DNA of 57,274 bases from an uncultured Clostridia bacterium (GCA_947624105.1 CANQIX010000003.1:1-57274); one strand, 5' to 3'. Positions 46,191 to 53,784 are shown, counted from the first letter of the stretch. The notes: generated by a model from the sequence alone, not told the origin. A program made the numbers and translations.

Positions 46191-46535
46191 ATGAATCATT
46201 TACTTGCATTAGGGACAAAAACAGTTAAGGCTTTTGCTGAAAACGAAGTTGCTATTCCAACTTGGGTTTCGGCATCTTTTCCTATCATTAGGATTGTTTT
46301 GTTTTGTATAATTGCTGTTGCTGCTATCATTATGATAGTTGCAGTGCTTTTCCAATCGGAAGATGCGGGAAACACAACAGCAATTACTGGCGGACAAGAT
46401 ACTTACTATTCTCAAAACCGCAACACATCGAAAGATGGAAGACTTAAAATAATCACTATTGTAATGGGAATCACAATTTTTGTTTGTGCCATCTTGTATT
46501 TCATCACTATTTTACCATTTGGCGGATTGGAATAA
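46191..46535 (+). CDS. secG: Preprotein translocase subunit SecG
   Basis: VLFQ...AITGG loop between two TMs; secG-rnr-smpB-ssrA synteny. Confidence 0.85.
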   Translation: MNHLLALGTKTVKAFAENEVAIPTWVSASFPIIRIVLFCIIAVAAIIMIVAVLFQSEDAGNTTAITGGQDTYYSQNRNTSKDGRLKIITIVMGITIFVCAILYFITILPFGGLE

Positions 46536-48616
46536 TGAACAAAAGAGAGCGAATATTAGAGTTAGTCGCTAAAAATAGTTTGGTCTATAATAATGTAGAC
46601 AAACTTTTTTTATTTCTGTCAACTGCTCTTGACACCTCTGTCGAGGAAGTTAAGCAGATCTTTTATCAACTCGTTGGAAACGGCGATATATATGAACTTA
46701 GAAAGAACAAGTTTATCGTCATTCCATCGTGCGGACACGTTAAGGGAGAGTATTGCGGCTCTGCAAAGGGCTTCGGCTTTGTTAAGGTAAGAGGATACGA
46801 AGACGACATCTTCATTCCTGCAAACAAAACTATGAACGCGATTGACGGAGAAAAAGTTATCGTCAATGTGCTTTCTCACACCAGCGAGGGCTCTTCTGGT
46901 GAGGTTGTTTCTATCTATCAACCACTTCAAAACATTGTTGGGCTTGTTAAGATAGTTGCAAATAACTTCTTCCTTGACCCAGACAATAAACATATAAACG
47001 AGGATTTTCCAATTGTAAAAACCGGCTTGAAACTGAAAAAAGATATGAAGGTTCTTGCAAAGGTTATAAGAACGGAAAAGGGCAAAGTTAAATGCGTTGT
47101 TGACGAAATTTTGGGAATGAATGACGACATAAAGACATTGGAACTTTCTATCATTCGTGAATATAACGTGTTTGAAAACTTCCCAGATGTCGTTTTGCAG
47201 GCGGAAAAAAGTGTTCCAAAGACAGTTAGTGCAAAGCAGAAAAAGGGCAGACTTGATCTAACAAATGAAGTTATATTTACTATTGACGGAGCAGATGCAA
47301 AGGACTTAGATGATGCTATTTCCATCAAAAAACAAGGCGAATTTTATGAGGTTGGCGTTCATATTGCCGATGTTGGAGAGTATGTAAAGCGCGATTCTGT
47401 CATCGACGAAGAGGCTTACAGAAGAGGCACAAGTGTATATTTTCCTACCTCTGTTATTCCAATGCTTCCAGTTGCGCTTTCTAACGGGATATGTTCGCTT
47501 AACGAGGGCGTTGAACGTCTTACACTTTCGTGCATTATGAAACTCGACAAAGATGCAAATGTTGTCGACTATAAGATTTGCGAAAGCGTAATCAAAAGCA
47601 AAGCAAGGCTTACTTATAAAGAAGTTTATGCCGCATTAAACGGCGAATTAAATGAAAAAACTAAAGATTTGGTATCACATTTCAAACTTATGAGAGAAGT
47701 TTGTGATGTTCTAGAGCAGAAACAAGCGGAAAGAGGGGCGCTCGACCTTGAAATTCCAGAAGTTCAATTTGTGTTTGACGAAAACGGAATGGCTGTTGAC
47801 CTTACACGAAGAGAACGCAATGAAGCGCACAGACTTATCGAGGATTTTATGGTGCTTGCAAACAGAGTTGTTGCAAAACACTTTAACGACCTTAAGATTC
47901 CTTTTGTTTATCGTGTTCACGAAGCGCCAACCAAAGAAAAAGTATACGCTTTGTGCGACTTCTTGAAGGGGCTTGGCGTAAGATATCCACAAGTTCCAGA
48001 TAAGATTGAACCATCTTATTTTCAAAAGATTCTTGCAGATGTCGAAGATTTAAACAGCAAAGACATCATAAACAAAGTTATCTTAAGAACGATGCAAAAG
48101 GCAAAGTATGCCAACGAAGATTTGGGGCACTTTGGACTTGCGCTTGTTGACTACTGCCACTTCACTTCACCTATTAGGCGTTATCCAGACTTAACGATTC
48201 ACAGAATCATAAAGATGTATTTGCACAATCAAATTGACGATGCAGCAAAGGAAGATTTGGATATATTCACTTTCGATTCTTCGGAGCAATCGAGCGAAAG
48301 AGAAAGAAATGCCGATGTTGCAGAGCGTGAAGTTGACGACTTGTGGAAGGCATACCTTATGAAAGATAGGATTGGTGAAACTTTTGACGCAACCGTTTCT
48401 TCGGTAACAAACTTTGGTATTTTTGTTGCCCTTGAGAACACCTGTGAGGGCTTAGTTCGCATCGAATCGCTTCCACTTGACACCTACATATTCTTTGAAA
48501 AACAACTTCAACTTAAAGGTGCAAGCCACATATACGCGATAGGCGATAAGGTTAAAGTTGAACTTATGAATGTAAATCTTTACAGCAGAGAGATAGATTT
48601 TAAGGTTGTTGAATAA
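46535..48616 (+). CDS. rnr: Ribonuclease R
   Basis: KGFGF cold-shock domain, TIDGADAKDLDDA, HFTSPIRRYPDL, C-terminal S1. Confidence 0.96.
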   Translation: MNKRERILELVAKNSLVYNNVDKLFLFLSTALDTSVEEVKQIFYQLVGNGDIYELRKNKFIVIPSCGHVKGEYCGSAKGFGFVKVRGYEDDIFIPANKTMNAIDGEKVIVNVLSHTSEGSSGEVVSIYQPLQNIVGLVKIVANNFFLDPDNKHINEDFPIVKTGLKLKKDMKVLAKVIRTEKGKVKCVVDEILGMNDDIKTLELSIIREYNVFENFPDVVLQAEKSVPKTVSAKQKKGRLDLTNEVIFTIDGADAKDLDDAISIKKQGEFYEVGVHIADVGEYVKRDSVIDEEAYRRGTSVYFPTSVIPMLPVALSNGICSLNEGVERLTLSCIMKLDKDANVVDYKICESVIKSKARLTYKEVYAALNGELNEKTKDLVSHFKLMREVCDVLEQKQAERGALDLEIPEVQFVFDENGMAVDLTRRERNEAHRLIEDFMVLANRVVAKHFNDLKIPFVYRVHEAPTKEKVYALCDFLKGLGVRYPQVPDKIEPSYFQKILADVEDLNSKDIINKVILRTMQKAKYANEDLGHFGLALVDYCHFTSPIRRYPDLTIHRIIKMYLHNQIDDAAKEDLDIFTFDSSEQSSERERNADVAEREVDDLWKAYLMKDRIGETFDATVSSVTNFGIFVALENTCEGLVRIESLPLDTYIFFEKQLQLKGASHIYAIGDKVKVELMNVNLYSREIDFKVVE

Positions 48617-48619
48617 TGT

Positions 48620-48648
48620 AAACTGGCAGAGCAATCTGTCAGTTTTTT
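48620..48648 (+). terminator. Intrinsic terminator after rnr
   Basis: aaactggcaga-gcaa-tctgtcagtttttt. Confidence 0.75.
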
Positions 48649-48700
48649 ATTAAAATGACGGGTAAAAGCGCGGAAATAGTGTAAAAATAGATACACTTTC

Positions 48701-48729
48701 TTGATTTTTGCCAGGGTCTGTGATATACT
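48701..48729 (+). promoter_or_regulatory. Sigma-A promoter of smpB-ssrA
   Basis: TTGATT-17 bp-(TGa)TATACT. Confidence 0.75.
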
Positions 48730-48749
48730 AAATATGAGGAGATGGAAGA

Positions 48750-49205
48750 GTGGAAATCAAGGCAAACAACAAAAAAGCGTATTTTAATTATTTCATTTCC
48801 GATTGTGTAGAGGCTGGTATCGAACTTAAAGGCAGCGAAGTGAAGTCGGTAAGAGCGGGCGGCGTAAGCATTTTGGATAGTTTTGTCGACATAAAAAACG
48901 GCGAGATGTATCTTAAAAATGCCTATATAAAACCTTACGAAAAGACAACAGCGTTTAAGGTTGAAGAGCGCCGAAACAGAAAACTTTTACTTCACAAAGA
49001 GCAAATTTTGAAGTTTGAACGTGCCACAAAGGAAAAGGGGCTTACCATTGTTCCAACAAAAGTCTATATAAACAAGGCAGGAAAAGTTAAGGTTGAAGTT
49101 GGACTTGCAAGAGGTAAAAAGTTGTATGATAAGCGCCAAACCCTTAAGGATAGACAAGTGAAACGAGATATCGAGCGCTATCCAATCCGTCATGGGGGTG
49201 ATTAA
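48750..49205 (+). CDS. smpB: SsrA-binding protein; stop codon inside tmRNA
   Basis: NKKAYFNY, EAGIELKGSEVKS, RKLLLHK, GKKLYDKR; GTG start behind GAGGAG. Confidence 0.96.
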   Translation: MEIKANNKKAYFNYFISDCVEAGIELKGSEVKSVRAGGVSILDSFVDIKNGEMYLKNAYIKPYEKTTAFKVEERRNRKLLLHKEQILKFERATKEKGLTIVPTKVYINKAGKVKVEVGLARGKKLYDKRQTLKDRQVKRDIERYPIRHGGD

Positions 49206-49588
49206 GTTTCGACACAGTTAATTTCGCAAAACACAAAGCATGTGGCGTCTTTCGCCTAAAACAAGAAAACAAATAAACGCAGAAGAAAATTCTAATGCAA
49301 CAACTCTTGCTTATGCTTATGCTTATGCTGCCTAAGTTAGGAGTTACTTGCGCCTGATTAGAGCATATCTAATCCATCGTCATTTTGGTATGCCTACAAA
49401 ATGTTAGGTGTCAGACTAGGCAAAAATTTTATGCAAAGTTGTCCTTGTATGCGTAAAAAATTTTAAGGAATTGTTTTAGAAGTTTGTTTGCGGACCACTC
49501 TAAAATGAAACAAAAACACAAACTAAACATGTAGAAAAGTTTTGTTAAGTAACTATGGACTCGGGAGCGTAACCCGACACCTCCACCA
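49194..49588 (+). ncRNA. ssrA: tmRNA
   Basis: 5' GGGGGTG...TTCGAC; 3' CACCTCCACCA giving an acceptor stem with G3:U; tag frame 49279-49335 AEENSNATTLAYAYAYAA*. Confidence 0.93.
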
Positions 49589-49621
49589 AAAAAGAACCAC
49601 AAAATTGTGGCTCTTTTTTTT
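49589..49621. terminator. tmRNA terminator (bidirectional form)
   Basis: aaaaagaaccaca-aaat-tgtggctctttttt. Confidence 0.75.
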
Positions 49622-49659
49622 ATAGAATATATAGTTTGAATCTTGCATATTATATATAG

Positions 49660-49720
49660 AAAAAAGAATACCACGGGTTATTATTACTGCCCCGTGGCAA
49701 AAGAAATATTTTTCTTTAAT
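49660..49720 (-). ncRNA. Candidate ~60-nt small RNA
   Basis: Lies between a near-consensus minus-strand promoter and a CCACGGG/CCCGTGG hairpin plus U tract; no ORF. Confidence 0.4.
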
Positions 49721-50045: not shown

Positions 50046-51152
50046 ATGAAAGGAATGCTTTTAGACGCTATTGGATTTGACTCTGTTATTTTGCAAATCT
50101 GCATCATTCTTGGAGTTGTAATTGCAGCAAGTTTGATCATCTATTTTATCTGGGAAGGTATCGCTGTTGCACTTGCAAAGAAGAAGGCAGCGCAAAAACA
50201 AGATGTTGCTCCAGTTGCTGCTAAGGAAGAAGACTCTGAAGAACTTCAACACTATTCATTAAACAATGAGGAGGCTGCAGTTGCTGCTGCTCCAGTTGTA
50301 GAAGAAACTACAGTTGTTGAAGAAGAGGAAGACGAAGAAACTAGAGAAGAAAGAGAAACTAGGGAACAACGTGAAGGACTTGAAAGAAGAAGACGTGAAC
50401 TTCTCTCTAGACTCCGTGAAGATGACGTAGAAGATTTGGAAGAAGTTGAAGAACCTGAAGACGTCGAAGAAGAAGTTGAAGAAGAACCACAAGAGATTGA
50501 AGAAGTAGAAGAAGAGGAAGACGAAGATGACGAAGTTATCCCTTCTGCATACGAAGAAGAATACAATCAACTTCAAGAGGAGAGAGAAAATCTCCAAAGA
50601 GAAAAAGAAAAGTATGAACAAATGGCTCAAGAACTTGAACTTGCTAAGGCTAAGTTGCTTGAAAAAGTTCAACCAGCAGAACCAGCCGTTCCAGTTCTTA
50701 CTCTTGATGACCTTAAAGAAAGACTTGCTGATGCACAAGAAAGATTAAAGTTAAACGAAAAAGACTTGAAACTTTGCAAGAAAGATTACATTCCTCTTAA
50801 CAAAGTTTGGAGAACTCACGAAAACGATGAAAAGAAACTTCGTAGAAAAGAGGCTCTTGTTGCTAAGCAAAAAGTTGTTCTTTATGGTGTAAACAACTAT
50901 GCAGACATCGATGAAGAAAAAGCAAAGAAATTAGCAGAAGACTTAGACTTACTTGATGGACTTAAACTTTCTGTTCAACATTGCGAAGAAGTTATGGCTA
51001 AGAACGAAGAAAGATATCCACTTTTGAAACGTATGTATGAATTGCTCACAAGTCAACACGACAGACTTAAAGAAGAAGTGGCAACACTTGAAGCCCAAAT
51101 TGCAAGAATTGAAAACAAAGATTCAAGCGAAGAAGAAGACGAGCAAGAATAA
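50046..51152 (+). CDS. Membrane-anchored acidic coiled-coil protein, unknown function
   Basis: One N-terminal TM, Glu-rich linker, long heptad-like C-terminal region. Confidence 0.8.
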   Translation: MKGMLLDAIGFDSVILQICIILGVVIAASLIIYFIWEGIAVALAKKKAAQKQDVAPVAAKEEDSEELQHYSLNNEEAAVAAAPVVEETTVVEEEEDEETREERETREQREGLERRRRELLSRLREDDVEDLEEVEEPEDVEEEVEEEPQEIEEVEEEEDEDDEVIPSAYEEEYNQLQEERENLQREKEKYEQMAQELELAKAKLLEKVQPAEPAVPVLTLDDLKERLADAQERLKLNEKDLKLCKKDYIPLNKVWRTHENDEKKLRRKEALVAKQKVVLYGVNNYADIDEEKAKKLAEDLDLLDGLKLSVQHCEEVMAKNEERYPLLKRMYELLTSQHDRLKEEVATLEAQIARIENKDSSEEEDEQE

Positions 51153-52667: not shown

Positions 52668-53784
52668 ATGGTAGTATTAGATTTACAAAAAGAAAAACTT
52701 AAAGAACTTACAAACGAATTCTATTTCGTTAAGGAGTGTCTTTGACCAAGAAAAATTAGAAAAAGACTTAGAAAATCTTAAAAAAATTCAACTTTCTGAC
52801 GGCTTTTATAACGACCCAAGCGCCGTTTCTAAGGTTGGAAGAGAGATTAAAATATGCGAAAGCAAACTAAACAAAATTAAAGGCTTGAAGGCAGATATAG
52901 ACAATTTGTCGGCAATAATTGAACTTTTGGACGAGGCGGAAGATAAGGCACTTGAAGAGGAACTTGATGCCTCGTTGAAGGAGTTAGAAAACAAACTTGC
53001 AGTTGCAAAACTTGAAACACTGCTCTCTGGAAAGTATGATGGATACAACGCTATCCTCACTCTGCACGCAGGGGCCGGTGGGACGGAGGCGCAAGATTGG
53101 GCGTCTATGCTCTATCGTATGTATTGTATGTATGCTGATAGGCAGGGATTTAAAACAAAGGTGCTTGACATACTCGATGGCGACGAGGCGGGAATCAAAT
53201 CGATTTCGTTCTTGGTTTCTGGCGAAAATGCTTACGGCTATTTAAAGGCAGAAAAAGGGGTGCATAGGCTTGTTAGAATATCGCCATTTGACGCCAATGC
53301 ACGCAGACACACAAGTTTTGCTTCGCTTGAAGTTATGCCAGAAATCGATGAAGCGCCAGATATTGTGATAAGACCGGAAGACTTAAAAATCGACACCTAC
53401 AGAAGTTCGGGCGCAGGCGGACAGCACGTAAACAAAACGGAGAGCGCCGTTAGAATCACCCACATTCCATCTGGAATAATTGTGGCGTGTCAAACAGAGA
53501 GATCGCAACTTCAAAACAAAGAAACTGCAATGAAGATGCTTTATAGTAAACTTGTTGAAAAGCAAGAAACAGAGGAGTTAGAAAAACTTGCCTCAATTCG
53601 CGGAACAATCAAAAAAATAGAATGGGGAAGTCAAATCCGCTCTTATGTGTTCTGCCCTTACACTTTGGTAAAAGACCACAGAACAAACTATGAGAAAACC
53701 GATATTCAAGCGGTTATGGACGGAGATATTCAAGAATTTATCAACGAATATCTAAAACAGATAAATACAACAGTAGGAGAGTAA
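52668..53784 (+). CDS. prfB: Peptide chain release factor 2 with programmed +1 frameshift
   Basis: MVVLDLQ...KECL then AAGGAG-TGT-CTT-TGA-C (52731-52746); the +1 frame continues to the SPF and GGQ motifs; about 371 aa. Confidence 0.96.

Follow-up and report, generated by a model that had tools for sequence, protein, structure and literature searches.

RNase P makes the 5′ end of tmRNA, and mRNAs without a stop codon are substrates for tmRNA and SmpB. Protein genes and tRNA genes may also share transcripts: in mixed mRNA-tRNA operons, such as those of E. coli in which tRNA genes lie with tufB or secG, the parts are separated by RNase P. The closest described relative of the arrangement reported here is that of Carsonella, where smpB and ssrA share a strand and the smpB coding sequence continues into ssrA (Hudson, Lau & Williams 2014, PMC4131195). 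The account given there credits Mao et al. 2009 for the overlap and points out that tmRNA maturation would cleave the smpB mRNA, turning it into a non-stop message on which its own product would act. In the parts of that article available to us, the overlap is reported in Carsonella only, among 2031 genome projects, and is treated as an oddity of an extreme symbiont. The same source lists overlaps of coding sequences with tRNA genes as candidates for frequent non-stop mRNA. Among them is a Helicobacter coding sequence of the FtsW/RodA/SpoVE family, the 3′ end of which overlaps a tRNA-Ile-CAT gene on the same strand (Table 4, PMC4131195). Regulation by non-stop messages is described, in the available parts of two further articles, for arfA of E. 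coli and brfA of B. subtilis, which are expressed from non-stop mRNA cut by RNase III and are repressed by trans-translation (PMC10107115; PMC11633108). The smpB-ssrA overlap is not taken up in the available portion of the 2025 update of the tmRNA database (PMC11915505), and our literature search found no paper on it other than PMC4131195.

Here we describe an smpB-ssrA junction in a stretch of 57,274 nucleotides from an uncultured Clostridia bacterium (GCA_947624105.1, CANQIX010000003.1:1-57274; hereafter “the window”). The sequencing runs that contain the window sequence are animal gut metagenomes. As in Candidatus Carsonella ruddii, smpB extends into the mature tmRNA on the same strand, here by 12 nt. 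The idea of self-feedback is not new, having been published already for Carsonella in the article cited above. What appears to be new is that overlaps recur, in a better-preserved form with full-length SmpB and intact tmRNA, across a genus of gut Clostridia.

Anatomy of the smpB-tmRNA junction

The features of the unit and of its upstream neighbor are collected in Table 1. The product of the smpB ORF matches the Pfam SmpB family (PF01668) with an E-value of 1.3e-55 over residues 5-143, which comprise the whole domain including the C-terminal tail. The tmRNA gene matches the Rfam model at 121.3 bits (threshold 47; E-value 2.9e-48) over its full length, positions 1-374, and is the sole tmRNA of the assembly (0.96 Mb, 98% complete, 50 contigs). 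Its 5′ end can be fixed to the nucleotide because all seven pairs of the acceptor stem are present, including G3:U, and are followed by ACCA. When the tmRNA is folded alone, the acceptor stem has a probability of about 1. The tag frame is open on translation and has a hydrophobic end ahead of its stop.

Table 1. Features of the smpB-ssrA unit and its surroundings (positions counted from the first letter of the window)
Feature	Position	Strand	Details
rnr (RNase R)	46484..48616	+	upstream gene; Pfam RNB 5.9e-113, plus CSD2, OB_RNB and S1
Terminator-like hairpin 3′ of rnr	48620..48645	+	11-pair stem, then T-run; separates rnr from smpB
Promoter-like site of smpB-ssrA	48701..48729	+	TTGATT-17-TATACT, TG upstream of the -10
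smpB CDS	48750..49205	+	151 aa; GTG start; C-terminus ...ERYPIRHGGD; TAA stop at 49203-49205
tmRNA (ssrA)	49194..49588	+	one-piece form, CCA encoded; Rfam RF00023
Overlap of smpB and tmRNA	49194..49205	+	12 nt; GGG GGT GAT and stop are tmRNA nucleotides 1-12
Acceptor stem, 5′ strand (GGGGGTG)	49194..49200	+	7/7 pairs with 49578-49584, G3:U included
Acceptor stem, 3′ strand (CACCTCC), and ACCA	49578..49588	+	from Rfam alignment and stem pairing
tmRNA tag frame	49279..49335	+	AEENSNATTLAYAYAYAA, then stop; resume codon from Rfam alignment
Terminator-like hairpin and T-run closing the unit	49597..49620	+	stem 49597-49610, then CTCTTTTTTT

An earlier reading of the window, made from the sequence alone (the sequence-only reading), had placed the smpB stop codon inside the tmRNA and G49194 at a codon boundary, 9 nt ahead of the stop. 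Both points hold. The overlap is obtained from the ORF, the Pfam and Rfam matches and the acceptor stem together, and the ORF frame agrees with the stem pairing in making G49194 both tmRNA position +1 and the first base of the smpB codon GGG.

ARAGORN gives no tmRNA in the window, nor in the related genomes G138, G140 and G046, and the tmRNA identification is therefore based on Rfam and the stem. The Rfam scores of these four ARAGORN-missed tmRNAs (L161, L162 and L157 among the loci) are 119-125 bits. In the subclade to which the window belongs the tag is long, and tmRNA scores are lower than anywhere else in the genus. Tag length is polymorphic within the species: GCTTAT units (AYAYAY) at 49303-49320 number three in the window and two in contigs of the sequencing runs X1, X8 and X12.

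Contigs from four public runs were compared with the window over 48600-49700; those of run X5 stop short of the junction. The DNA contig of run X1 covers the whole interval and differs only at 48713, 48717 and 49140 and by a 6-nt deletion at 49308. Run X12, which belongs to another study, gave a contig that covers 49171-49416 with zero base differences and shares the 6-nt deletion. Both contigs are identical to the window at each base of 49171-49205. The sequence-only reading had proposed looking in other sequence for a stop codon before 49194; there is none in either contig that reaches the junction (X1, X12), and none in G138 or G140, in which the junction (CAT/GGG GGC GAT TAA, the slash marking the tmRNA 5′ end) is as in the window.

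Downstream of the unit, at 50046-51152 on the + strand, is a 368-aa ORF that is extremely rich in Glu and Asp and has an N-terminal hydrophobic stretch.

Overlaps in the genus and the class

We searched 151 genomes of the same genus (about 1 Mb each), of which 142 contained a tmRNA. The junction was readable in 139, the upstream sequence being too short in G019, G130 and G154. The spacer was counted in nt from the smpB stop to tmRNA +1, a negative value being an overlap. Three species have a spacer of -12, namely that of the window, G138 and G140 (CAT/GGG GGY GAT TAA). Another 18 have -11, with the junction xGG GGG CGW TAA in a frame that differs from that of the -12 group; one of these, G146, was corrected by eye, its Rfam match being shortened. 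In a single species, G091, the stop straddles the boundary (TA/G, -1). The spacer is 0 in 7 species, 1-20 nt in 102 and 59-192 nt in 8. The survey of relatives, which the sequence-only reading had named as a check, thus turned up the stop in or straddling the tmRNA in 22 of the 139 species, with the overlap kept throughout an 18-species clade, and a spacer of 0-20 nt in 109. In those 22 species, cleavage by RNase P at the tmRNA 5′ end would take away or divide the stop. The acceptor stem with 7/7 pairs, G3:U and ACCA is present in 135 of the 139 genus loci. The ends given by ARAGORN are those given by Rfam in all six loci that it detects; it misses all four loci of the window's subclade.

The 6-20-nt spacers often contain CCC (45 of 71, genus loci L013-L164, vs about 0.5% of equal-length windows upstream). 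It usually stands directly after the stop, as TAA-CCC, TGA-CCC or TAA-CACCC, and is tied to the stop, not to tmRNA +1. An upstream CCC as a substitute was not found in the species with shorter spacers or overlaps. The spacer CCC may in part reflect shared ancestry of one large clade.

For the history of the overlap we used a quick maximum likelihood tree of smpB without its last 36 nt and tmRNA without its first 20 nt (146 rows). G086, the smpB tail of which looks frameshifted, was excluded from the tree and from the tail counts given below. The -11 species form one clade (18/18, support 99) among the basal lines of the genus. The -12 species sit in a clade of 16 species (support 100), the other members of which have spacers of 0-5 nt, and the AU test does not reject a single origin for the -12 species (p 0.89). 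The -1 junction of G091 arose separately. On this tree the overlap has at least three origins in the genus.

The internal tree length of the -11 clade is 3.34 substitutions per site. Retention of the overlap in 18 of 18 species of so deep a clade could reflect selection instead of neutrality. However, a rough estimate puts the number of stop-creating changes that neutrality would bring to the last codons, summed over the clade, at only about 0.7-2.2, so that perfect retention is no proof of selection and the test is without power.

Short spacers extend beyond the genus. A sample of the class comprised 151 genomes, one of them unscored, with a tmRNA in 130 of 150. From other genera we took 90 genomes (30 search loci and 60 fetched); 34 class rows were left out, made up of same-genus duplicates and 12 large genomes picked arbitrarily. 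In this set smpB lies upstream of the tmRNA on the same strand in 59 genomes and does not in 31. Two of the 59 have an overlap (G240, -10; G209, -1), with tmRNA ends that ARAGORN reproduces in both. Spacers of at most 11 nt occur in 30 of the 59 (among loci L172-L261), including the 2 overlaps, 3 at 0 nt and 25 at 2-11 nt, the last count including two late Rfam ends that were corrected. Tight packing of smpB and ssrA therefore appears to be common in the class, with overlap as its occasional extreme. The frequency of 0-11-nt distances points to co-transcription and separation by RNase P as the usual route, and this may be the norm in the class. One genome from another genus of the same family has a 214-nt spacer. 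Among 62 SmpB loci from other classes and phyla, a crude regular expression for the tmRNA 5′ motif, rough enough to miss the true genus tmRNAs L262, L269 and L276, detected a tmRNA less than about 600 nt away in only 8, the spacers there measuring 58-295 nt.

Transcription, proposed processing and the predicted cut message

The sequence-only reading had also claimed that there is no intergenic space and that the only clear promoter is upstream of smpB. The ORF, the Rfam match and our promoter scan agree with this: the site at 48701-48729 is the sole well-placed promoter-like site near the unit on the + strand, and no terminator-like site was found between smpB and the tmRNA end, the first being that at 49597. 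The scan was run at two thresholds and covers simple -35/-10 sites of sigma-70-type consensus, and unusual promoters may escape it. Within that scope, a promoter-like site ends 0-45 nt 5′ of the smpB start in 133 of 137 genus genomes, with a clear positional peak. In the last 160 nt 5′ of the tmRNA, such sites occur in 20 of 137 genomes, three of which are long-spacer genomes, and are scattered and weak. No conserved internal promoter and no positional peak was found ahead of the tmRNA in the 137 genomes at either threshold. In the window, this interval has no promoter-like site at a score of 9 or more and a weak one at -145 at a score of 8. The scan thus supports a single promoter for both genes.

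A cluster of sites 120-140 nt 5′ of the tmRNA was considered as a promoter and rejected. It is weak (no 10-nt bin exceeds 14 of 137 genomes), its sequences are mixed, and like clusters occur deeper in the smpB coding sequence.

With a promoter-like site 5′ of smpB in nearly all genomes scanned and none conserved before the tmRNA, the likeliest reading of the unit is that the genes are co-transcribed and that RNase P then cuts the transcript, yielding a non-stop smpB mRNA. Since the stop codon lies inside the tmRNA, every complete smpB message must include the tmRNA 5′ end; given a co-transcript, RNase P processing must leave a stopless smpB mRNA. The claim of the sequence-only reading that tmRNA maturation leaves such an mRNA is therefore upheld as regards the anatomy and the presence of RNase P RNA (see below), while the co-transcription on which it depends is something we infer from the positions of promoter-like and terminator-like sites.

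In G138 (L162) and G140 (L161) we noted GTGATA-18-TATACT, with the TATACT at 12 to 7 nt 5′ of tmRNA +1, ending 6 nt before it. This could give a leaderless tmRNA start exactly at +1 in those two species. In the window the place of this TATACT is taken by TATCCA, which lies further upstream.

A 375-nt contig from an RNA library (depth 30) covers 49203-49583, that is, tmRNA only and no smpB. It comes from one RNA run available as contigs, from which ends, strand and level are not readable and in which missing smpB cover is not evidence, and it hints, weakly, at tmRNA accumulating separately from smpB.

We next consider what the cut message would encode. Residues 2-145 of the SmpB align to full-length solved SmpB proteins, and with the 144-aa Thermus chain the alignment spans residues 6-142 of both. 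As the alignment ends by residue 145, codons 1-148 encode a complete SmpB including the tail. The truncated protein is complete by this measure and may be functional. In 116 non-overlapping relatives the tail past the conserved Arg has 2-6 residues, with a mode of 5. The 21 overlap species counted have 7-8, of which 4-5 precede the cut, and the pre-cut tail is inside the range of the complete tails. The extra GGD, GGR or RGR residues are best read as simply what the tmRNA 5′ end spells.

Folding the tmRNA together with smpB sequence (49100-49620 or 48736-49620) lowers the acceptor pairing probability to 0.09-0.34 because of competing pairings, in which the tmRNA 5′ strand (49194-49200) pairs with a C-rich, CCC-containing stretch of smpB at 49134-49143. 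We dropped this pairing as a mechanism, as CCC occurs within 70 nt upstream in only 2 of the 22 overlap species.

The machinery was searched for in G000, the genome that contains the window (98% complete, 0.96 Mb). It contains an RNase P RNA of type A (267.8 bits, G000:C13:11474-11812) and, for degrading tagged protein, ClpP, ClpX and FtsH; Lon was not found. Nor did the search of G000 find ArfA, ArfB or RqcH. Matches to the RF-1 domain, relevant to ArfB, were two 367-aa ORFs only, and RqcH (NFACT_N) passes the cut-off in 1 of the 151 genus genomes. The window itself contains one of the two release-factor genes (about 53359-53682). Ribosome rescue here may depend on trans-translation alone, and among the factors searched in G000 (ArfA, ArfB, RqcH) we found no route that would release untagged product when trans-translation is limiting. 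Ribosomes stalled on the cut smpB mRNA would have no other known exit.

These elements suggest the following course. One compact transcript, from about 48736 to about 49620, would carry smpB and ssrA. A cut by RNase P at 49193/49194 would free the tmRNA and end the smpB message 9 nt short of its stop. Normal SmpB (...YPIRHGGD) would be made by ribosomes that finish ahead of the cut; a time window before the cut must exist, since the acceptor 3′ strand is transcribed about 385 nt downstream, and a ribosome at the end of smpB would also cover the acceptor 5′ strand. Ribosomes that follow the cut would reach a stopless 3′ end and depend on tmRNA-SmpB for rescue. The late SmpB (...YPIRH) would gain A-AEENSNATTLAYAYAYAA and pass to ClpXP or FtsH. 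RNase R, encoded by the adjacent gene, would help to clear the cut message, and its role in removing such messages is established for E. coli. Regulation of SmpB by the overlap is a proposal.

Meaning of the overlap and comparison with known systems

We lean towards the view that spacer loss in small genomes led to the overlap as a nearly neutral final state. In relatives with spacers of 0-20 nt, the RNase P cut would already leave a bare 3′ end at or near the stop, so that loss of the stop would add little cost. It is on account of these relatives, and of the several origins by different routes, that we judge the overlap near-neutral. The continuum of spacers in the genus, from +20 to -12 nt, also appears to fit spacer loss better than a purpose-built switch. 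If the overlap is neutral, it provides a clean example of how tightly genes can pack without harm.

Unlikely, though with several points in its favor, is that the overlap is maintained by selection as a feedback or stoichiometry gate that ties stable SmpB output to tmRNA maturation. To give stable SmpB, a ribosome would have to finish ahead of the folding of the tRNA-like domain and of cleavage by RNase P, the later product being self-tagged; SmpB would be held near one per tmRNA and damped at high rescue capacity. Such a gate would account for the retention in all 18 species of the deep -11 clade despite its internal tree length, and for the two class origins that add to the three or more in the genus. 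It has what it would need in one promoter serving both genes, a cut message that encodes a complete SmpB by alignment, and ClpXP and FtsH, and it has a precedent in arfA and brfA, for which control by nuclease-made non-stop messages is described in the available parts of PMC10107115 and PMC11633108. Against it, the retention has no statistical weight given the few stop-creating changes that neutrality predicts, and sister lineages thrive with spacers of 0-20 nt. The missing back-up release also counts against it: with ArfA, ArfB and RqcH not found in G000, and RqcH in only 1 of 151 genus genomes, low rescue capacity would trap ribosomes on the cut message, not free SmpB.

Rather more doubtful is the strictly kinetic form of this gate, in which selection would confine the making of stable SmpB to a period of seconds that opens when the stop codon is transcribed and closes when the tRNA-like domain folds and is cut by RNase P. 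If true, all later SmpB chains would be tagged by the RNA just released, SmpB would be made at about one per tmRNA, and rescue capacity would feed back on SmpB supply. The near-zero spacer found across the class would then serve the same coupling, possibly with SmpB loaded in cis onto the nascent tmRNA.

Lower again we place the possibility that little or no non-stop smpB mRNA arises, either because the tmRNA comes mainly from an unrecognized start inside or at the end of smpB, or because smpB-ssrA read-through is rare or is shielded from RNase P by ribosomes or RNA pairings until it decays. The -10-like TATACT of G138 and G140 would place a start at tmRNA +1, the scan covers consensus sites only, the RNA contig does not reach into smpB, and the acceptor stem competes with the 49134-49143 pairing in folds of the co-transcript. 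However, over the 160 nt that precede the tmRNA the window has nothing scoring 9 or above, only the weak site at -145 when the threshold is 8, and the 137 genomes show no positional peak there while that of the smpB promoter is clear. A complete smpB message must in any case contain the tmRNA 5′ end, with no terminator-like site before 49597, and conservation of the competing pairing is lacking, with CCC present in just 2 of the 22 overlap species.

That an assembly or sequencing error erased a real stop, or that smpB is decaying in this genome, is scarcely credible and already largely refuted: the assembly is in 50 contigs and the window tmRNA score is the lowest in the genus sample, but the X1 and X12 contigs agree at all bases of 49171-49205, G138 and G140 have the same junction, the full-length SmpB matches Pfam strongly and keeps its tail, and in the tmRNA the acceptor stem is perfect and the tag frame open.

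Close relatives with and without the overlap are natural replicates, and they make the self-targeting hypothesis testable by comparison and with simple heterologous constructs.

Among known systems, arfA and brfA are described, in the available parts of the articles cited above, as having an endonuclease cut ahead of the stop and a product that is tagged while tmRNA-SmpB is active; for smpB here, both would follow from the anatomy if the genes are co-transcribed. Their nuclease is RNase III, whereas here it would be RNase P, acting for tmRNA maturation. Unlike in arfA and brfA, the regulated product would be a part of the tagging system itself, and no factor was found here that would release untagged product when tagging fails. 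Of the arfA-like control that the sequence-only reading had suggested, the repressing half can thus be retained and the release half cannot, since ArfA, ArfB and RqcH were not found; the analogy is weakened accordingly, and we regard it as a weak one.

In the Helicobacter case, as far as the available part of its source describes it, an upstream coding sequence likewise overlaps a tRNA gene; there the genes are unrelated, whereas here the protein specified by the cut message is the partner of the released RNA. Like the tufB and secG operons, the unit would have a protein gene and a tRNA-like RNA on one transcript, to be separated by RNase P. In those operons a spacer keeps the coding sequence intact; smpB-ssrA here has no spacer.

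The closest parallel is Carsonella, with differences that can be drawn from the available parts of its description. Carsonella lives as an endosymbiont in insects and its genome is extremely reduced, whereas the bacteria described here are gut Clostridia with genomes of about 1 Mb. Its SmpB is without the central loop and the C-terminal tail, whereas here SmpB is full length and has its tail. The Carsonella overlap occurs in half of the strains, including one or more with a pseudogenized ssrA, whereas the tmRNA here is intact; and where that overlap is not present in all strains, here it is fixed in a clade of 18 species.
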